This document shows positions 3,901 through 35,355 of a stretch of 53,461 nt of DNA, piece by piece; the first letter of the stretch is position 1, and every line of letters begins with the position of its first letter. A program made the translations under genes and the position numbers. Under the pieces are notes generated by a model that was not told the origin of the DNA, ran no database searches, and was given only the letters and a program-made list of their open reading frames with translations. Origin of the DNA: a virus; the UHGV virus genome UHGV-0032033. The stretch is one strand, 5' to 3'.

Positions 3901-5398
3901 CTCCAGCATCAAAGGGGAAATCGCCCGCGTTGACAAAGCAATCGCAACCGAAACGCAGGCAAGAAGCGACGCAATAACAGAGGTTAAAGCTGATTTAACC
4001 ACGCTTGAAAATAGCACGAACGCCAGTGTTAGACGCCTTGATCAAGCTATCGCTGACGAATCAAGCGCGCGCGCCCAGGCAATATCAGGCATCAGTGCGG
4101 AGCTTGGTTCTGTTGAAAGTGATGTTGATAAAAACAGCGACAAGATAGAACAGGCGAAAGCAAGCCTGCAAAACGCATCGATTGCACTTATCAACAACTC
4201 AATAGCGCAAAGCAAGATGGGCACTGTTATTGAGGCGAAATATAGGAAAAGCCAGATAAAAACAAAAGCGGAAATAGCAAGGATCGACACAGCAATAGCA
4301 GACGAAACCCAGGCACGCGCAGAGGCTATAGCTTCTCTTGAAGCCAATATTAATGAAAACATTTCAGCAAAAATAACAGATATATCAACGGCGCTCGCAA
4401 CTCACGAGGCATCAAGTGCTGAAAAATTTGTTCAAATATCGGCATCTTTCGACGATGTAAACTCAAGCATCACGGAATGGTCACAGGCCATGACAACGGC
4501 AGACGAGGCATTATCAACCAAAATTGATCAGCTGAAAGTGACCGTTAACGGAAACACAACAGCGATCGAGACAACATCGAAAGCGTTAACTGACTTTAAA
4601 GGTAACGTTGATGCGTCATATTCAATCAAGCTCGCCACCGATAACAACGGCATGACATACGCTACAGGTATGTCGCTTGGATTGACTGGAGACGGGACTA
4701 ACTTTCAATCGCAGTGTATTTTTCTGGTTGATCGCTTCGTTTTAATGACTGCGGCAAACGGTACATATCAATCGCCTTTCTATGTCACCAATGGCGCAAT
4801 GTATGTGCGCGAAGCGTTTATTAAAAACGGTTCAATCGACAATGCAAAAATAGGCAATGTCATAACATCCTACAACTGGAACGGTAGCGATCAAGGGTGG
4901 GCAATAGTTAAAGATGGCTGGGCTACATTTAACAACGTTACAGTTCGAGGCACGGTATACGCCACTAACGGCGAGTTTTCAGGGGCCGTTAGAGCCAAAT
5001 CATTTGAGGGTGGCATTAGTTCAGGTACGCAGGGAACAAGGCAATCCAGCGGGACGATCACAATTAACGTAACACCTAATACATCTAATAGTATGCTATT
5101 GCTTTTCGTTTCTGTGTACACGGCTGGTGTGCGCACAGCAAGCGGCGAACATACAGTAACACTACATGCTGGTGGTCGTAGTTTTAACGTTCCTCCGTCT
5201 TATGTTGCAAGTGGTGGCGTACCGTCAACTTACAGATTTGATTCAACTATAATCATCCCGGTAATTGGGACAAATAAGAGGGCTGTTTCGATATATTTGA
5301 GTCATGTTGGACATGTTAGCTTAATTAACACAGACATAAGACTTCTTGGCGCTGTATTACTAAACTCTTCATTTTTAACAGGTACTTTTGATTTTTAA
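992..5398 (+). CDS. tail tip host-specificity protein J-like (central tail fibre), 1468 aa
   Basis: RBS aacaggag; N-terminal ~800 aa carry lambda J hallmarks (ISEGPIYGPV, YHLRG, AFGCTSRGQAHRAGKWLI); then coiled-coil with internal duplication and C-terminal receptor-binding-like region. Confidence 0.9.
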   Translation: MSSGGGKAKTPTLINDNLYHKQFYRVLDIISEGPIYGPVNTKAPLNSVMLNDTPVTDANGNTSIPGISVAWRNGTIDQSPINGFNAIESTVIVNAQVKHDTPIIRTVSDPNVNRVRLNIGVDSLVQSDEQSNQHNTSVMMMIDVKPSSSSTWTLVKDVTIGPGKISGEYLEAHIINAPDEKPFDIRVRRVTADSTSDLLQNDTRWSSYSEIIDDNLSYPHTAVAGAVIDHDQYADTPTRTYHLRGLIVDIPDNYDPEKRTYSGLWLGGFKQAYTNNPAWIFRYLVKNERFGLARHAGYIDVDDGALYTLSRYCDQLVDDGYGGLEPRMTLNAYITEQMSARDLLDNIAGMFRGIALWDGQRLTVMIDAPQDPIATITNANVVDGAFTRSSISRAECYNAVIVSWTDPENGWEQSKEYVADDELIARDGYNETTLEAFGCTSRGQAHRAGKWLIETAKREPSKFTFKMARDAIHFTPGDIIEILDNNRAGARLGGRIVANNGKVITVDKVDSEYIAAGDTISLLDGDGKFKKHQITGVNWNKITLAAAPAWIRNGTVFAVSTESAKPVLCRIISVAETENNSVYTIEAAQHDPNKQAVVDEGAIFEINNDTLNHFRVPNIENLKVVNIGSETVQCRATWETQTTTHRMTFEIRIYNADGAVVKSYETTKYSYDFYGIDAGAYSLGVRGRNDTGMKGAESIVDLVIGAPASPIGVNWVPGVFQATVYPISKTTLTTDTAYEFYYAGENQITDPAKITTSAQFTGRGYQWTFGGMNTGHTYYVYVRTRNAFGVSDFVEASGKPTENFDEISDYVTKDVMNSEQFKGMVSDIKDLGDRTDIIESATADLKTATDGLKADTDTLKKDTEDLYKKVEENADEIGKHAVRIDSLEVSDENVNNELAQTKASLQNASLALINNSLAQTNTRVTLTAQYKKGRNETKAQIDRIDNVIADEKKATAESLETITAEMNAMDSSIKGEIARVDKAIATETQARSDAITEVKADLTTLENSTNASVRRLDQAIADESSARAQAISGISAELGSVESDVDKNSDKIEQAKASLQNASIALINNSIAQSKMGTVIEAKYRKSQIKTKAEIARIDTAIADETQARAEAIASLEANINENISAKITDISTALATHEASSAEKFVQISASFDDVNSSITEWSQAMTTADEALSTKIDQLKVTVNGNTTAIETTSKALTDFKGNVDASYSIKLATDNNGMTYATGMSLGLTGDGTNFQSQCIFLVDRFVLMTAANGTYQSPFYVTNGAMYVREAFIKNGSIDNAKIGNVITSYNWNGSDQGWAIVKDGWATFNNVTVRGTVYATNGEFSGAVRAKSFEGGISSGTQGTRQSSGTITINVTPNTSNSMLLLFVSVYTAGVRTASGEHTVTLHAGGRSFNVPPSYVASGGVPSTYRFDSTIIIPVIGTNKRAVSIYLSHVGHVSLINTDIRLLGAVLLNSSFLTGTFDF

Positions 5399-16138: not shown

Positions 16139-16786
16139 ATGAAAACAAAATGGTATGACTTAGCAAAGCAGCTCATGCGGGCGCAGGGCATGAGTCAGGA
16201 TTCACTCGCAGATCTCATGGGGATAACTAAAGGCGGCCTGTCACACTGGCTGAATGGTCGCCGCGAGCCTAATCTTGAAGATATTGCGCGGATTATGCGG
16301 GCGCTTGGTCGTCGGCAGTTTACTGTTACACATGACGGCATGGTCATTGATGATTCTGTTTCTAATACACTTCAGGCCGCGCCGCCGCGTGATTTAGGTA
16401 GTTACCCGGTTATTGACTGGAAGGACACAGTAAACAATATGGATGACACAAGGCGATCAGCATTACCACACGTTACGACTAGCGTTATTTGTTCAGATGA
16501 TAGTTACTGGCTGGTTGCCAAAGGTGAATCAATGAACGCGCCGCAGGGGTTGAGCATCCCTGCTGGGACGATGATACTTGTAGACCCGCACGCGCCAGCT
16601 ATTGACGGCAAACTGGTTATAGCCCAGCTTGAGGAAGGGCAGATACCGACGTTTAAACAGTTGATTATTGATGGAGGTCAAAGGCTTTTACGTTCGCTCA
16701 ATCCGCTGTATCCGCCAATCCCTATGAATCCAGAATCAAAAATTATAGGCGTGGTGGTTGATGCGAAGATCGTAAACCTGCCATAA
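16139..16786 (+). CDS. cI: cI-like repressor (XRE HTH + S24/LexA-type autopeptidase)
   Basis: N-terminal HTH (SQDSLADLMGITKGGLSHWLNGRREP), C-terminal S24 motifs (VAKGESMNAP, IPTFKQLIIDGG); divergent from early operon. Confidence 0.85.
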   Translation: MKTKWYDLAKQLMRAQGMSQDSLADLMGITKGGLSHWLNGRREPNLEDIARIMRALGRRQFTVTHDGMVIDDSVSNTLQAAPPRDLGSYPVIDWKDTVNNMDDTRRSALPHVTTSVICSDDSYWLVAKGESMNAPQGLSIPAGTMILVDPHAPAIDGKLVIAQLEEGQIPTFKQLIIDGGQRLLRSLNPLYPPIPMNPESKIIGVVVDAKIVNLP

Positions 16787-16789
16787 ACA

Positions 16790-16818
16790 TTAGCCGCCGG
16801 ATGGCGGCTTTTCTTTGC
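16790..16818 (+). terminator. rho-independent terminator after cI
   Basis: hairpin agccgcc-ggat-ggcggct followed by TTTCTTTG. Confidence 0.7.
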
Positions 16819-16909: not shown

Positions 16910-16938
16910 TTGACTCGATGTTTTACGGGGCGTATATT
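16910..16938 (+). promoter_or_regulatory. near-consensus sigma70 promoter for rightward early operon (pL-equivalent)
   Basis: TTGACT - 17 nt - TATATT; preceded by motif AGGTATACAAAATGG; followed by ~340-nt leader before first ORF. Confidence 0.6.
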
Positions 16939-17285: not shown

Positions 17286-17576
17286 ATGAGCGTTACAATT
17301 ATGTATGGCAAATGTGACAGTAAACTGAATGCCAGGGAACGCAGAAGGATAAAAAGAGAAAACGAAAGAAAATCATCACCTGCAATCAATAAAACAGACA
17401 ATGTGGATAAAGCTATTCGATTTGCAAACGAGGAAAGATGCAAACCAAATAGCATTAAAGAACGTCGCAAAGGATCAGTAAAATGGTATACGGAAAATGA
17501 AAGCGGCAACTACTACCACGCAACGCAACCACGCCATTTAGGGGAAAAACCCCTGGATAAAGTCCGCTACCATTAA
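17286..17576 (+). CDS. hypothetical basic protein (96 aa)
   Basis: RBS ggag; Arg/Lys-rich (ARERRRIKRENERK); first ORF of rightward early operon. Confidence 0.45.
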   Translation: MSVTIMYGKCDSKLNARERRRIKRENERKSSPAINKTDNVDKAIRFANEERCKPNSIKERRKGSVKWYTENESGNYYHATQPRHLGEKPLDKVRYH

Positions 17577-17606: not shown

Positions 17607-17726
17607 ATGGTTATTCAGGCGCTTCAATTCAAACTGGCGGTAGCGGAAATGCTTCATGATGCCGAAATGTGGAGCGCCGCGAATAAAGCCTTATACGTAG
17701 TGTTAACAGCACGGGAGATTAAATAG
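17607..17726 (+). CDS. hypothetical small protein (39 aa)
   Basis: ATG-initiated mini-ORF whose stop overlaps erf GTG start; MVIQALQFKLAVAEMLHDAEMW... Confidence 0.3.
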   Translation: MVIQALQFKLAVAEMLHDAEMWSAANKALYVVLTAREIK

Positions 17727-18367
17727 TGAAAACAGAGTTACATAAAAAGCTATGGACGATTCAGCAAACGCTGAACGCGCCGAAAAATCAGCGTAATAAT
17801 TTTGGTGGATATAACTACAGGTCGGCGGAGGATATTTTAGAGGCGGTTAAACCACTGCTTCAAAATATCACGCTGACTGTTAGTGATGAAATTGTCCTGA
17901 TCGGCAATCGCTATTATGTGAAAGCTACGGCGACGCTAAGCGATGGTGAAGACGTAATAGCGGTAACTGCTTATGCCAGGGAGGAAGAAAGCAAGAAGGG
18001 TATGGACGCCAGCCAGCTAACAGGAGCAACATCAAGTTACGCGCGTAAATATGCTTTGAACGGTTTATTCTGTATAGATGATGCTCGCGATCCTGATACT
18101 GATGCTTACGCGAAGCAGACAGGCCAGCAGCCGCGACAACAGAAAAACCCACCAAAACAACAACCGCAGCAGAAGAAAGCGCCGCCAAATCCTGATGAAG
18201 TATTAGCACGTTTCTGTGATGCAGCAGCGAAAGCGCAGGACGCTAACAAGCTGCGTGAAATATTTGGCAAATGCTGGAAATTACTACCGGAAGGATCGGA
18301 ACATCGAATCAAGGCAAAAGATGTTTATGACATCCGGGTAGCAGAACTTAACGGGGAGATGGGTTAA
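17726..18367 (+). CDS. erf: Erf-family single-strand annealing protein
   Basis: GTG start with RBS gggag; N-terminal NNFGGYNYRSAEDILEAVKPLL and SSYARKYALNGLF motifs typical of ERF; Gln/Pro-rich C-terminal tail. Confidence 0.7.
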   Translation: MKTELHKKLWTIQQTLNAPKNQRNNFGGYNYRSAEDILEAVKPLLQNITLTVSDEIVLIGNRYYVKATATLSDGEDVIAVTAYAREEESKKGMDASQLTGATSSYARKYALNGLFCIDDARDPDTDAYAKQTGQQPRQQKNPPKQQPQQKKAPPNPDEVLARFCDAAAKAQDANKLREIFGKCWKLLPEGSEHRIKAKDVYDIRVAELNGEMG

Positions 18368-18831
18368 TGAGTTTAAATTCAATCACGCTGGGCGGGAATA
18401 TCGGTAATGATATGGAGGTTCGCTACACACAAAACGGGAAAGCGATTGGTAGTTTTCCGTTAGCTGTAACGAATGGCTACGGCGATAATAAGCGGACAAT
18501 GTGGATCACTTGCATGGTATTCGGTGAGCGCGCGGAAAAATTAGCGCCGCATATCCGCAAGGGTGGAAAAATAGTGGTAAGCGGTCGCCTGGATGTTCGG
18601 CAATATGACCGGAACGACGGCACGAAGGGGACGGCGGTAGAAGTGGCGGTTAACGAATTTGAATTCCTTAGCAGGAATGATCAGCAGCCGCAGCAGCAAC
18701 AGCAACAACCACAGCAACAGCAGAATCATAGCGGTGGATATAAAGAGCCGCCAATGGATTTTGATGACGACATCCCATTCGCTCCTGTGGGTTTACAATA
18801 TGGCAAAAGCAGAATCTACGCACTATCTTGA
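18367..18831 (+). CDS. ssb: single-stranded DNA-binding protein
   Basis: OB-fold N-terminus (LGGNIGNDMEVRYTQNGKAIGSFPLAV...WITCMVFGERAE), Gln/Pro-rich linker, acidic tip DFDDDIPF. Confidence 0.85.
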   Translation: MSLNSITLGGNIGNDMEVRYTQNGKAIGSFPLAVTNGYGDNKRTMWITCMVFGERAEKLAPHIRKGGKIVVSGRLDVRQYDRNDGTKGTAVEVAVNEFEFLSRNDQQPQQQQQQPQQQQNHSGGYKEPPMDFDDDIPFAPVGLQYGKSRIYALS

Positions 18832-19093
18832 TGCGCCGCAGATTCCGCGAACAAAAGAGCAAGTTCTAAAAGAAGCCCGTGATCAAATCGATCGCGGGCT
18901 TTTTTTATGCGGCACGGCAGCGGATCGGATGGCAAAAAGATTTAGTGACCTGTACGCAAAGCAAATATGGTTCGACAACTGGCAGGCAAGTTTTTACCCA
19001 CTGCAAAGAAAACCGGATATGCATTGGCCTGAATATGTCGATCCACGTATGCGCAAATATCGCGGGCGTATGGGCCAGGTTATTAACGATTAA
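18800..19093 (+). CDS. hypothetical protein (97 aa)
   Basis: Internal ATG of track ORF 18659..19093 preceded by gtttacaatatgg; overlaps ssb 3' end. Confidence 0.45.
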   Translation: MAKAESTHYLDAPQIPRTKEQVLKEARDQIDRGLFLCGTAADRMAKRFSDLYAKQIWFDNWQASFYPLQRKPDMHWPEYVDPRMRKYRGRMGQVIND

Positions 19094-19106: not shown

Positions 19107-19358
19107 ATGACAGCTACAACATTAAGCGAAAATAACGGTAGAGGTTTTCAGAGAACTGCGGAAAGCCTTGATGATAGTGATGTATTTGTTGATTTCGGCG
19201 GCGGAAACTACGAATTCGAGACGTCTGCGGGCTGGGTTGATAAATGGCCTTTCCCTACTCGACAGGAATTAAGCGAACGTAAATCATTTGGCGAAGATGC
19301 CGAACGCCTGGCGAATAATAAATGGTTGGATAAATTTATTGCGGAGGCTGATAAATGA
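19107..19358 (+). CDS. hypothetical protein (83 aa)
   Basis: RBS gaggtg; internal Met of track ORF 18879..19358. Confidence 0.5.
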   Translation: MTATTLSENNGRGFQRTAESLDDSDVFVDFGGGNYEFETSAGWVDKWPFPTRQELSERKSFGEDAERLANNKWLDKFIAEADK

Positions 19359-19474
19359 GCATGGTAAAAATTGCGGCATTAGCCGCCGCCTTCGTTATTG
19401 GGGTGATTTATATCACAGCTTCTTTTTATGTCGCCGTTTTTATTGCTGAATTAATTGTTGCATTGTTGGGGTGA
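19355..19474 (+). CDS. small hydrophobic membrane peptide (39 aa)
   Basis: ATGA-coupled to upstream gene; MSMVKIAALAAAFVIGVIYITASFYVAVFIAELIVALLG; below track cut-off. Confidence 0.4.
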   Translation: MSMVKIAALAAAFVIGVIYITASFYVAVFIAELIVALLG

Positions 19475-19477
19475 GTT

Positions 19478-19597
19478 ATGAAGGTTTGCAAGAATATTGT
19501 AAGGGTCGCTTTTTGCGTTATTTGTTTCCTGTTTACGATTGTGTTTTGCGGCGCACTTGCGGCGGTAATTAGCTTTATTTGTAAAGGGGCGATGTGA
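19478..19597 (+). CDS. small hydrophobic membrane peptide (39 aa)
   Basis: MKVCKNIVRVAFCVICFLFTIVFCGALAAVISFICKGAM; stop overlaps next ATG. Confidence 0.4.
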   Translation: MKVCKNIVRVAFCVICFLFTIVFCGALAAVISFICKGAM

Positions 19598-19869
19598 TGG
19601 TTACTTGGAATGCAAAAGAGGGCGATCTTGTTGTTTTGCCAGAATATCGTAGCGATCCTGGTCTGGTTGTGCTGAACAAGACATATAACGATCTTGAGCG
19701 CCCGATCCTGGTTAAATATCTGGATGGAACAATTATAGAGCCGCGTTTCTTCGACAAGATTGAACTGAAGGCCCGCAATGTTCGCGTTAAGCCGTTCCGG
19801 GCTTATGTTGAAAACCACTGGCGGAAATTGTTCGCCGGACTGAATGGGATGTTTGGCGTATGGCTATAA
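19594..19869 (+). CDS. hypothetical protein (91 aa)
   Basis: Track ORF, translationally coupled in early operon. Confidence 0.5.
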   Translation: MMVTWNAKEGDLVVLPEYRSDPGLVVLNKTYNDLERPILVKYLDGTIIEPRFFDKIELKARNVRVKPFRAYVENHWRKLFAGLNGMFGVWL

Positions 19870-21106: not shown

Positions 21107-21325
21107 ATGGAACGCGAATTGATGCTTTATTGCGTAGAAGGTGGCGTAGGTCACGATGCCTACGTCGCCGGGAAAGGCTATCCAGCCGATGAAGTGCTTT
21201 CTAATATGCACTTCAGAGAAAATGAAAGCCAGGTGTCTGTGTGGAAACGATGCATTGATGGTATTGAGGTTGTAAGTATAGAACGGTATTTAGGTACGTT
21301 TGATTACGGTGTTATTGAGGCTTAA
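21107..21325 (+). CDS. hypothetical protein (72 aa)
   Basis: RBS gaggaag upstream of internal ATG of track ORF 21050..21325. Confidence 0.45.
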   Translation: MERELMLYCVEGGVGHDAYVAGKGYPADEVLSNMHFRENESQVSVWKRCIDGIEVVSIERYLGTFDYGVIEA

Positions 21326-21327
21326 TT

Positions 21328-21420
21328 ATGGACGACACATTGTTTTATATGTGCTGTTGCTGGGGTTTTATTGCCTTATGCCTGTTTATCAGGTGGTTTA
21401 TTGAATACCATATGAGGTAA
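21328..21420 (+). CDS. small hydrophobic peptide (30 aa)
   Basis: MDDTLFYMCCCWGFIALCLFIRWFIEYHMR; below track cut-off. Confidence 0.3.
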   Translation: MDDTLFYMCCCWGFIALCLFIRWFIEYHMR

Positions 21421-21812: not shown

Positions 21813-22049
21813 ATGTTTAAGAGCTTTTTTAACTGGTTGGGGGCGTGGCTTTTGGCTACGCTTTTTGTTTTCCTGGCGGCCCTGACTGTTATCGGTGTTA
21901 TTATGCTGGGGGCTATGTTTATTACGTGGTCGCTTCCTGAATTTAACGACATTGGGAATATTCTTTTTGCAGCCCGCGCTTTATTGGCTGTTAGCGCATT
22001 CATTGGTTTTTGCTGGACTGCCGCGCCTGATTGGGCTGACACATGGTGA
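21813..22049 (+). CDS. hypothetical membrane protein (78 aa)
   Basis: Two hydrophobic helices (WLLATLFVFLAALTVIGVIMLGAMFITW; LLAVSAFIGFCW). Confidence 0.45.
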   Translation: MFKSFFNWLGAWLLATLFVFLAALTVIGVIMLGAMFITWSLPEFNDIGNILFAARALLAVSAFIGFCWTAAPDWADTW

Positions 22050-22295
22050 TCCTATGGCTTTATTCAATATGTCAGAGCCGCAATTTAACGCCGTAAAGAC
22101 TGCCCCCGCGCCGCGCTTTCGGCCTGCAAGGCGGAGGTAGAAAAGAACGGATACAGCGATAAAGCCACGCGGCTGATATTAGATAAGCATTATCGCAAGG
22201 TCGCCCCGCTAATCAGTATTGAGCGTTTTGTGTGGTTGGTGGGGTATCTGAATAACCGCTGGGGAACGGAACAGGATTATTTCTAAGGGGGCGTA

Positions 22296-22835
22296 ATGAA
22301 AAATGATTACGGCGGCAGCCATACGCCGAAAGAAATAAAAGACTTATGGCAAACGCCAAAACCAGTTTTTAGAGGAATGGATCGGGAATTCGAATTCGTC
22401 GCGGATGTGGCGGCAAACAAGGCAAACGCATTAATCCCGCGATATATAACCGAAGAAATGGACACGCTTCATTATCCGTGGGGTGCGGTGGCGATGCCTG
22501 GTGAGTATGTCTGGATGAATCCGCCATATTCTAATCCGGGGCCATTCGTTGATAAGGCGGCGCTTGAACATCAACGAAATCACATTGGCTGTGTAATGCT
22601 ATTGCCCGCTGACATTTCTGTTAGCTGGTTTATGAACGGCGTGGAGACGGCAAACGAATGCCGATTAATCACGCGCGGGCGGCTGGCGTTTATCAATGCT
22701 GCAACAGGGAAACCAGTAAGCGGGAACAATAAGGGGAGCTTGTTCTTGATCTGGCATCCACGATGCAGACATGAATGTATTTTCACGCAGATAACACGTA
22801 AAGAGCTATATGCAAGAGGTGCAGAAAATGAGTAA
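22296..22835 (+). CDS. dam: DNA N6-adenine methyltransferase (phage Dam-type)
   Basis: 179 aa; catalytic NPPY motif (YVWMNPPYSNPGPFVDKA), size and context typical of phage Dam. Confidence 0.8.
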   Translation: MKNDYGGSHTPKEIKDLWQTPKPVFRGMDREFEFVADVAANKANALIPRYITEEMDTLHYPWGAVAMPGEYVWMNPPYSNPGPFVDKAALEHQRNHIGCVMLLPADISVSWFMNGVETANECRLITRGRLAFINAATGKPVSGNNKGSLFLIWHPRCRHECIFTQITRKELYARGAENE

Positions 22836-33193: not shown

Positions 33194-33394
33194 ATGCTCG
33201 ACAAAATACGGGAGGCATGTGCGTATGCAGTAGGGGCCGTAACGGCCTTTTTTGGTGCGATAACCATTAATGATGTTGCTGTCTTTGTTGGTATCTTATC
33301 AACCGCAGGCACATTTGCCGTTAACTATTACTTCAAATCACAGGAGAACAAGCGAGCGCAAGAGGAACACGACGCGCGAATGGGGAATAAGTAA
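33194..33394 (+). CDS. pinholin (phage 21 S-like holin)
   Basis: 66 aa, two TM segments, C-terminal NYYFKSQENKRAQEEH resembles S21 NLYFKIREDRRKAARGE. Confidence 0.75.
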   Translation: MLDKIREACAYAVGAVTAFFGAITINDVAVFVGILSTAGTFAVNYYFKSQENKRAQEEHDARMGNK

Positions 33395-33886
33395 ATGATT
33401 AGCCAATCGCTGAAGAACAAGATTATTGCTGCGGCGGCTGGTGGGGCGATCGCTATTGCGGCTGTGATGGTTAAACCATTAGAAGGCGTGGAGTACGATC
33501 CTTATCGTGATGTTATCGGTGTATGGACTGTGTGTTATGGTCACACCGGAAAGGACATTATGCTGGGTAAGACTTACACGCAATCAGAATGCGATGCTTT
33601 GTTAAACAAAGATCTCCACAAAACCGCAAAAGCGATTGACCCATATATTAAAGTCGAAATATCAGATTTTACCCGCGCGGCGCTTTATTCATTCGCCTAT
33701 AACGTAGGCGCTACCAACTTCAAAACATCAACCTTATTGAAGCTACTCAATGACGGCAAGAAATCGGAGGCATGTGCACAGCTTAAACGCTGGATATATG
33801 CTGGCGGCAAGCCGTGGCAAGGGTTAATAAACCGCCGTGATGTTGAATATGCCGTTTGCGAATGGGGTGAAACATGGAAAAGGTGA
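33395..33886 (+). CDS. SAR endolysin (lysozyme, phage 21 R-like)
   Basis: N-terminal Gly/Ala-rich SAR segment [17 protein letters not shown]; catalytic region [41 protein letters not shown] close to R21. Confidence 0.9.
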
Positions 33887-34344
33887 AGACGTTAATTATC
33901 GCCGTTGTTGTTTGCATTATTGCCGGGCTGACCGCCGTAACATGTTATTACCAGGGTGAAGCAGCGAGATTGCAGGAAGAGGTCACGACCACGCAAGGCG
34001 CACTGAAAACAGCAAGTAACACTATTCAGCAGATGAAGGAGCGAAACGCAGAGCTATCAAAACTTGATAAGAGGTATCACGATGAAATTAAAGCTATCAG
34101 ATCTGACATTGCCGATCTGCGCACTGGCATTGATAGCGGCGCTATCAGGTTGCACGTCAACGCCGAACCAGTGCGATTACTCGACAATACGGGAACCGCC
34201 AGCCGCATTGATGGAGCCACCTGTAGACTCACTCCCGACGCTGAATCGGCTTATCTATCCCTCAGAGAACAACTAAAAGAGAAAGATGCGAAGATCGCCG
34301 GACTTCAGAGCTATATCAAAACGCAGTGCTTACGCAAAAAATAA
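33874..34344 (+). CDS. Rz: i-spanin (Rz)
   Basis: N-terminal TM helix, coiled-coil periplasmic domain; overlaps endolysin 3' end. Confidence 0.8.
34082..34276 (+). CDS. Rz1: o-spanin (Rz1), embedded in Rz in +1 frame
   Basis: RBS aagagg; lipoprotein signal with lipobox LSGC, Pro-rich mature part. Confidence 0.75.
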   Translation: MKLKLSDLTLPICALALIAALSGCTSTPNQCDYSTIREPPAALMEPPVDSLPTLNRLIYPSENN

Positions 34345-35259: not shown

Positions 35260-35355
35260 ATGGACGCTTACATCATCGCCGGATTAATCGGTATTTCTGT
35301 ATTTATGGTGAGTTTTATTATAGCCGTGCTGATAACCGTAAAGAGTAAATTATGA
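35260..35355 (+). CDS. micro-ORF 2, hydrophobic peptide (31 aa)
   Basis: Same gaggctgattATG unit; MDAYIIAGLIGISVFMVSFIIAVLITVKSKL. Confidence 0.4.
   Translation: MDAYIIAGLIGISVFMVSFIIAVLITVKSKL

Follow-up and report, generated by a model that had tools for sequence, protein, structure and literature searches.

The virus genome UHGV-0032033 (53,461 nucleotides (nt); this whole stretch is called the window below) contains, within its early operon, two adjacent open reading frames (ORFs) that each encode a hydrophobic peptide of 39 amino acids (aa). We named them P1 and P2. They lie between two small genes, U on the 5' side and D on the 3' side, and a third short ORF, P3, which encodes 30 aa, was located further downstream between a 72-aa and a 64-aa gene (Table 1). 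All three had been pointed out from the sequence alone, P3 at 21328..21420, and their coordinates and translations proved to be exactly as described. A 771-bp region around P1 and P2 matches seven phage records (mEp010, mEp013, mEp021, mEp044, mEp515, mEp554 and MagusPhagus), and the same region was matched in 35 of 5,426 complete Escherichia coli genomes, there within chromosomal prophages. Judged by sequence, the window is a mEp021-like ("mEpimmI") temperate coliphage, a group that is described in PMC11893012. The analysis below indicates that P1, P2 and P3 are very probably real, translated membrane peptides.

Copies of the U–D interval were collected from 49 loci (seven phages, three RefSeq prophages and 39 IMG/VR contigs, the contigs with D as bait); eight more loci were added later, and 47 loci were obtained through an independent bait, a 206-aa downstream gene. 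Conservation of the frames in related phages had been set beforehand as the refuting test, and the frames were conserved: P1 was intact in 48 of the 49 loci, P2 in all 49, and P3 was found in 56 of 58. Counted among these 56 is a diverged allele of 29 aa (MDAEMMFMACCWGIVAVGLFLRWVIEKYL), in which the motif M.CCWG...LF.RW.IE is retained. The sole exception for P1 comes from a metagenomic contig, where one nt of an A5 run is deleted. Gene lengths are multiples of three only, namely 108, 114 or 120 nt for P1 and 117, 120 or 123 nt for P2. P1, P2 and D were also found in every independent-bait locus with enough upstream sequence. On the evidence of these loci, P1, P2 and P3 are core genes of the mEpimmI coliphages.

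The ratio of nonsynonymous to synonymous substitution (dN/dS, pooled Nei-Gojobori) was 0.20 for P1, 0.32 for P2 and 0.21 for P3, and 0.22 and 0.19 for the flanking genes U and D. When the alignments were read in the shifted forward frames, P1 and P2 gave 0.8-1.5, with stops, and P3 gave 0.73 and 2.19. For P1 and P2 the annotated frame is the only one of six without stops in any relative, and the only forward frame with dN/dS well under 1. One reverse frame is also low (0.30-0.41), which is expected because it shares the wobble position, and it carries stops. Between allele types the proportion of synonymous differences (pS) is 0.65-0.75, that is, saturated, and dN/dS is still at or below 0.3. 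By these substitution patterns, purifying selection acts on the amino-acid sequences of P1, P2 and P3, and it does so even where synonymous sites have become saturated between alleles. A 130-aa minus-strand ORF (19426..19818), which runs across P2 and D, was rejected as a gene, since it has stops in relatives and is not conserved.

The junctions between these genes are conserved as well. The ATG of P1 (19355-19357) overlaps the TGA of U (19356-19358) as ATGA, and this was kept in 48 of 48 loci. The gap between P1 and P2 is 3 nt in the window and 2-9 nt among related loci. On the other side, the TGA of P2 (19595-19597) shares one base with the ATG of D (TGATG); if D starts instead at a GTG at 19594, the two genes share 4 nt. 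All 49 loci have an overlap of 1 or 4 nt at this junction, and relatives with a 40-aa P2 have a true ATGA there. The sequence-only reading had placed ATGA overlaps at both flanking genes, which is exact for the upstream junction, whereas the downstream one is TGATG in the window. Its proposal that P1 and P2 are translationally coupled to their flanks is borne out by the overlap geometry, which is kept across relatives. Besides the Shine-Dalgarno sites of the three peptides (Table 1), the sequence AAAGGGG is the Shine-Dalgarno site 5' of the D start. The mean energy of the duplex with the anti-Shine-Dalgarno sequence was -10.1 kcal/mol for P1, -6.5 for P2 and -8.9 for D, with a background mean of -2.7. 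A read-through fusion of P1 and P2 (TGA GTT), which would be an 80-aa two-helix protein, was rejected: it is in frame only in the window allele, the other gaps being 2, 7, 8 and 9 nt.

The best 19-residue Kyte-Doolittle segments of the window peptides scored 2.32 (P1), 2.84 (P2) and 1.88 (P3), in agreement with the hydrophobic single-helix peptides that had been proposed, and across all three families the means were 1.9-3.0, over the classical threshold of 1.6. The uncharged core comprises 26-29 residues in P1 and P2 (residues 6-31 in the window P1, residues 10-35 in the window P2) and 17-18 in P3. AlphaFold2, with a 24-sequence alignment, gave P1 as one continuous helix over residues 3-38 with a predicted local distance difference test (pLDDT) score of 96.8. 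The C-terminal flanks of the peptides carry at most one positive and one negative charge. The N-terminal flank of P2 contains K2, K5 and R9 in the window, and two to three K/R residues precede the core across alleles; under the positive-inside rule this flank would lie inside (N-in). In P3, acidic residues flank the core on the N-terminal side and basic ones on the C-terminal side, for which the same rule predicts N-out/C-in. Conserved positions are K5, I6, A7, L9, A11, Y19, S23, Y25, I30, L33 and I34 in P1, and F12, F17, F19 and the small-residue cluster G25-A26-x-A28-A29 in P2.

When all six frames of the window were screened for ATG-ORFs of 30-45 aa, nine of the 121 were equally hydrophobic, so hydrophobicity alone is weak evidence, and it is conservation that lifts P1, P2 and P3 over chance. 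P1 and P2 were rejected as paralogues (hhalign probability 1%). P2 was also rejected as a lipoprotein, since the lipobox [LVI][ASTVI][GAS]C is not conserved: the position reads IVFC in the window, VVSC in some alleles, VVFC in most, and VVIAG, with no Cys, in one deep allele type (M, see below). P1 has no Cys.

P1 and P2 each fall into three deep allele types, which we called W, C and M, and the types of the two genes are perfectly linked (W-W in six loci, M-M in nine and C-C in 33). The recombination breakpoints lie outside the pair. The W allele of P1 in the window has 58-64% nucleotide identity to all other P1 alleles; in loci L008 and L011 the identity to the window is 97-98% for U and D but only 61% for P1. 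The alleles of U and D assort independently of those of P1 and P2. In L053 (1661..2374) and L055 (1784..2497), a KilA-N gene of 237 aa (714 nt) has been inserted precisely into the P1-P2 gap; P1 and P2 are both intact there, and the U-P1 and P2-D couplings are kept. The linkage and the insertion are compatible with a P1-P2 pair, or with units of U+P1 and P2+D. Both patterns are also expected because P1 and P2 are adjacent and the gap between them is the only non-overlapping junction.

P1, P2 and P3 had no family match in Pfam, NCBIfam, PHROG or PADLOC, and Pfam and NCBIfam scans at E up to 1 gave only spurious sub-threshold matches (PufX, TMEM70, Apq12 and LptF). Profile searches of 5.8 billion proteins found 72 clusters for P2 (37-48 aa), all from this phage group, and 72 clusters for P1 (29-72 aa, nearly all 35-39 aa). 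Where a source is named, it is always E. coli or Caudoviricetes, and many contigs have the length of a phage genome (~50-57 kb). A phmmer search with the window P1 against 1.8 billion representatives found only itself. By tblastn against 50,697 phage records, P2 and P3 matched no phages other than the seven mEp-like ones, except for one P2 match at chance level (E = 0.5) in a Propionibacterium phage tail gene, and the window P1 allele found nothing. U and D are as group-restricted as P1 and P2; D, scanned against one genome each of 185,579 species, gave nothing. On these searches P1, P2 and P3 are orphan families of one phage group.

Six of the seven phage records list orthologues as 'hypothetical protein' (among them mEp010_29/_30/_37, mEp554_27/_28/_35, mEp044_27/_28/_34 and MagusPhagus CDS0113/0112/0106), and E. 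coli WP_000868625.1 (RefSeq) is P2 in strain UMNK88. They occupy the same syntenic positions, with ~43-100% amino-acid identity, and none has an assigned function. P1, P2 and P3 are not called in the record of the archetype, mEp021. In the other five RefSeq genomes examined, the Prokaryotic Genome Annotation Pipeline (PGAP) leaves the U–D interval of ~235 nt unannotated. The word 'transmembrane' is absent from PMC11893012, and the passages of it covered here make no mention of the three peptides.

Table 1. Features of UHGV-0032033 around P1, P2 and P3, and the lysis cassette (positions in the window).
Feature	Position	Strand	Basis or remark
CI/LexA-like repressor	16139..16786		PHROG scan
Strong terminator-like hairpin	16792..16809		
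Promoter-like site	16910..16938	+	best + strand site within the scanned 16.5-23.5 kb
N-like antiterminator, mEp021 gp17 homologue	17286..17576	+	head of early operon; phrog_271, E = 2.9e-12; synteny with mEp021 gp17
Lambda_Kil-like ORF, 39 aa	17607..17726	+	directly 5' of erf; PF06301, E = 2e-4, 21.2 bits, under gathering score 27.6
Erf	17726..18367	+	
SSB	18367..18831	+	
Abc2 homologue	~18800..19093	+	anti-RecBCD/abc2 annotation in mEp021 and MagusPhagus; without own family match
U, 83 aa	19107..19358	+	5' of P1; phrog_28542; weak sub-threshold DUF2737 similarity
P1 Shine-Dalgarno site GGAGG	19343..19347	+	7 nt 5' of ATG, within U 3' end; invariant in 48/48 loci
P1, 39-aa single-pass membrane peptide MSMVKIAALAAAFVIGVIYITASFYVAVFIAELIVALLG	19355..19474	+	rarer divergent 'W' allele
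GC hairpin GCGGC-ATTAGCC-GCCGC	19373..19389	+	short, inside P1 codons 7-12; equivalent place is 'terminator TERM_2' in mEp021 GenBank record
P2 Shine-Dalgarno-like site GGGGTGAG	19468..19475	+	contains P1 stop TGA (19472-19474); TGAGG or GTGAG kept in 49/49 loci
P2, 39-aa single-pass membrane peptide MKVCKNIVRVAFCVICFLFTIVFCGALAAVISFICKGAM	19478..19597	+	
D, 90 aa	19597..19869	+	3' of P2; phrog_28396
P3 Shine-Dalgarno site GAGG	21317-21320	+	
P3, 30-aa membrane peptide MDDTLFYMCCCWGFIALCLFIRWFIEYHMR	21328..21420	+	between 72-aa and 64-aa genes
Dam-type methylase	at 22296		after further small genes including P3
Holin	33194..33394		lysis cassette
SAR (signal-arrest-release) endolysin	33395..33886		lysis cassette
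Rz with embedded Rz1	33874..34344		lysis cassette

The genes of the operon were assigned by PHROG scans, and promoter-like sites were scanned over 16.5-23.5 kb. The order is repressor, terminator, promoter-like site, N-like antiterminator, Kil-like ORF, Erf, SSB, Abc2 homologue, U, P1, P2 and D. According to PMC11893012, the N-like Gp17 of the mEp021 right early operon acts at nutR1 upstream of gp17, and Gp17-dependent early antitermination is reported there as experimentally demonstrated. P1, P2 and P3 are placed in the early operon because of the homology to this mEp021 right operon and because of the gene order. The early-operon placement put forward from the sequence alone is thus upheld, from the N-like antiterminator to D. 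With the Kil-like ORF the order would be N, kil, erf, ssb, abc2, which is that of PL operons of the lambdoid and P22-like type. Since this ORF, although its match is sub-threshold, sits 5' of erf, the role of a division inhibitor is probably already taken.

PGAP names D a 'toxin-antitoxin system toxin subunit' in many E. coli genomes. D had no Pfam, NCBIfam or PADLOC match, and the PGAP name, which has no profile support, appears unsupported. The AlphaFold2 model of D has a pLDDT of 44 and is unusable. Further downstream lies a strongly hydrophobic 78-aa gp28 homologue (21813..22049, + strand, phrog_14059); the name 'cell division protein FtsK', which PGAP assigns to it in several prophages, is not backed by Pfam. 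It is followed by the homologue of mEp021 ipe ('inducer of pleiotropic effects', 77 aa) at 22054..22287, which is frameshifted in the window through a 1-nt deletion (a GCCGCC run is now GCCCC). What is left is a 28-aa ORF, with the remainder readable in another frame; the full 77-aa ORF was found in all 62 other loci examined, and the window copy is either a pseudogene or a sequencing error. Loci L045, L046, L050 and L053 (~4000..4600), which do not have the 72-aa gene 5' of P3, contain other membrane-like ORFs of 60 aa (MTNFERNH...) and 32 aa (MWLIDLILACW...). Small hydrophobic genes are concentrated in this early operon.

The hairpin inside P1 was considered as an RNA element or terminator and rejected. 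In the mEp021-type allele (L001, 3181..3197) it has a 6-bp stem followed by TTTATCT; in the window it has a 5-bp stem without adjacent U-tract, and several P1 alleles have no hairpin. The local fold at the window hairpin is no stabler than that of shuffled sequence (z = -0.14). No Rfam family reached the gathering score anywhere in the window, and hence there is no antisense RNA of the described families.

The lysis cassette of the window is complete and lies 14 kb from P1 and P2, which sit in the early operon. P1, P2 and P3 were rejected as holins, pinholins or antiholins: they are outside this cassette, have no charged C-terminal tail and gave no PHROG holin match. On the 3' side of the cassette a fourth candidate small membrane ORF of 31 aa (MDAYIIAGLIGISVFMVSFIIAVLITVKSKL, 35260..35355, + strand, Kyte-Doolittle 2.82) was observed; tblastn gave 77-83% aa identity to ORFs of mEp044 and MagusPhagus, which are annotated there as hypothetical. 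The peptides have the size and shape of type I toxins (<60 aa, hydrophobic single helix). As known toxins of this type they were nevertheless rejected, on the grounds that they match no family profile, have no Rfam antisense family and do not form a stand-alone repressed unit. Class IIb two-peptide bacteriocins would fit by adjacency and size, and were rejected since there is no GG-type leader and no transporter among the neighbours. The genes next to P1 and P2 encode small soluble proteins.

As to function, we tentatively favour, at slightly less than an even chance, that the three unrelated genes encode single-pass inner-membrane microproteins which act by binding a larger membrane protein. 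P1, P2 and P3 would be synthesised in the early lytic phase, and not until repression is lifted and Gp17-type antitermination has occurred; they would then insert into the inner membrane. Action through the transmembrane helix is most likely, because there are almost no extramembrane residues, and the helix would bind and modulate a larger protein of the inner membrane, either a host protein or perhaps one encoded by the phage. P1, P2 and P3 would thereby serve host takeover or the conditioning of the envelope in an accessory role, and not lysis. Tens of thousands of hydrophobic microproteins under purifying selection occur in Enterobacteriaceae and are thought to bind other proteins (PMC11188072). 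P1, P2 and P3 share the features that define the class of small membrane regulators, being shorter than 50 aa, with a single transmembrane helix and under purifying selection.

Three points weigh against this interpretation. Conservation showed no significant one-sided helical periodicity (moment at 100 degrees per residue; p = 0.34 for P1, p = 0.28 for P2), which does not suggest a dedicated interaction face. The families are confined to one phage group, and therefore nothing can be borrowed from characterised homologues. Rare frameshifted, fused or truncated variants exist (L013, and P0071, P0072, P0076, P0185, P0187 and P0190, the latter being one contig each); they may be assembly errors, or may reflect occasional decay and be a sign of dispensability.

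A more specific form of the proposal is that P1 and P2, as a co-inherited pair, are dedicated early in infection to inhibiting or re-programming one particular machine of the E. coli inner membrane, and that P3 is an independent third factor of this kind. A transporter, the divisome, a cell-wall enzyme, FtsH or a component for DNA entry are examples of candidate machines. We regard this form as conceivable, though rather doubtful. If true, the pair would represent a new family of host-takeover factors that are encoded by phages and embedded in the membrane.

Several other explanations were weighed against binding to a larger membrane protein. P1 and/or P2 might oligomerise and dissipate the proton-motive force, so that the host is shut down or lysis is timed; this seems improbable. 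The size, extreme hydrophobicity and single helix do recall toxins of the Hok, Ldr, TisB and Ibs type. In addition, overexpression of Ipe, the early-operon neighbour in mEp021, perturbs the envelope and gives cell death and vesicle-mediated haemolysis, as cited in PMC11893012, so the region encodes envelope-active accessory proteins. Against permeabilisation, the toxin families of Pfam and NCBIfam and the antisense families of Rfam gave no match, and the peptides are coupled genes of a polycistronic early operon with strong, exposed Shine-Dalgarno sites instead of a repressed stand-alone unit. The charged C-terminal tail typical of holins is missing, lysis is provided for elsewhere in the window, and early depolarisation would be expected to harm phage production.

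Superinfection exclusion during the lytic phase, similar to that by T4 Imm and Sp, is in our view also unlikely. Exclusion, like host takeover, had been suggested from the sequence alone as a role that the peptides could have. P1 and P2 would here alter an inner-membrane component for DNA entry and thereby block secondary phages. Early expression and inner-membrane location would be expected for such a function, and three diverged allele pairs that are always co-inherited, with breakpoints outside, are a pattern often seen in specificity determinants; this linkage, however, is expected anyway for genes 3-9 nt apart. According to PMC11893012, exclusion in this phage group was experimentally assigned to Lpp lipoproteins of other genes, and P1 and P2, being behind a repressor-controlled promoter and a terminator, should be silent in lysogens. 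No correlation between P1/P2 allele type and receptor class was apparent among six mEp phages, with the classes taken from the same paper. For example, mEp021 and mEp044 share the same P1, and only mEp044 of these two is listed there among the LamB-dependent phages.

Alternatively, the peptides might be membrane tethers, P1 for U and P2 for D, each anchoring or regulating the soluble partner to which it is coupled. The U-P1 and P2-D overlaps are universal, and the KilA-N gene of L053 and L055 falls between P1 and P2 and leaves both couplings in place. This insertion loses weight, since the P1-P2 gap is the only non-overlapping junction and so the only permissive site. The free exchange of U and D alleles relative to P1 and P2 in L008 and L011 speaks against allele-specific co-adaptation, and the AlphaFold2 model of D offers no help at its low pLDDT. 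We assign a low probability to tethering.

That translation itself is what matters, with the mini-ORFs relaying ribosomes from U to D by termination-reinitiation or acting as regulatory upstream ORFs, is very unlikely. Stops and starts do overlap or nearly abut along the whole string, but a relay would leave the amino acids unconstrained, whereas the observed dN/dS is 0.2-0.3 and alleles with saturated synonymous divergence all retain transmembrane character. Each ORF moreover has its own conserved Shine-Dalgarno site, and P1 and P2 remain intact where they are split by the 714-nt gene. Finally, it is almost certainly not the case that the ORFs arose by chance in a spacer rich in T or are the trace of an RNA element, for example TERM_2: 7% of window ORFs of 30-45 aa are as hydrophobic by chance, P1 contains a terminator-like hairpin and PGAP leaves the region unannotated in most RefSeq genomes, but the codon-position substitution pattern, the only stop-free frame and the insertions and deletions in multiples of three speak for genes, and the hairpin is absent from several alleles, folds like shuffles and has no Rfam match.

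Binding to a larger membrane protein, as we favour for P1, P2 and P3, has precedents in the host. The small inner-membrane regulators AcrZ, MgrB, MgtS, SgrT, KdpF, CydX and PmrR of E. coli act in this way. Regulators of the AcrZ/MgrB type, which are a functional class and not a homology family, resemble the three peptides in having fewer than 50 aa, one transmembrane helix and almost no soluble domain; unlike them, P1, P2 and P3 are phage-encoded in an early lytic operon, and Pfam and NCBIfam show no sequence relationship. The type I toxins Hok/Gef, Ldr, TisB, Ibs, ShoB, DinQ and ZorO are likewise small, very hydrophobic and single-helix, whereas P1, P2 and P3 are coupled operon genes with strong Shine-Dalgarno sites, without family match or antisense RNA family.

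Among phage proteins, T4 Imm and Sp, P22 SieA, HK97 gp15 and Cor/Llp/Lpp are membrane-located, as is predicted for P1, P2 and P3, and T4 Imm is also an early lytic product. These proteins, however, are larger or multi-pass, or else are lipoproteins. The single-gene-lysis peptides of ssRNA phages, such as the 37-aa LysM, demonstrate that about 37 aa can specifically inhibit a host membrane enzyme. These lysis peptides and the holins and pinholins are likewise short and have one transmembrane helix; P1, P2 and P3 differ from holins and pinholins in their position outside the lysis cassette, in having no charged C-terminal domain and in being early instead of late. Ipe of mEp021 and the 78-aa gp28 homologue belong to the same early operon and have no sequence similarity to P1, P2 and P3, and the Ipe sequence is not obviously hydrophobic.

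P1, P2 and P3 are uncharacterised members of a very common kind, the hydrophobic microproteins of phages and enterobacteria, and nothing points to a new principle. With their recognition, three very short ORFs count as genuine core genes of the recently defined, gut-prevalent mEpimmI coliphages, which is a correction of the annotation and a lead. If their targets were found, they could extend the short list of phage peptides that act inside the membrane on host machines and could provide small genetically encodable inhibitors of E. coli membrane proteins, and part of the early physiology of the mEpimmI phages could be explained.

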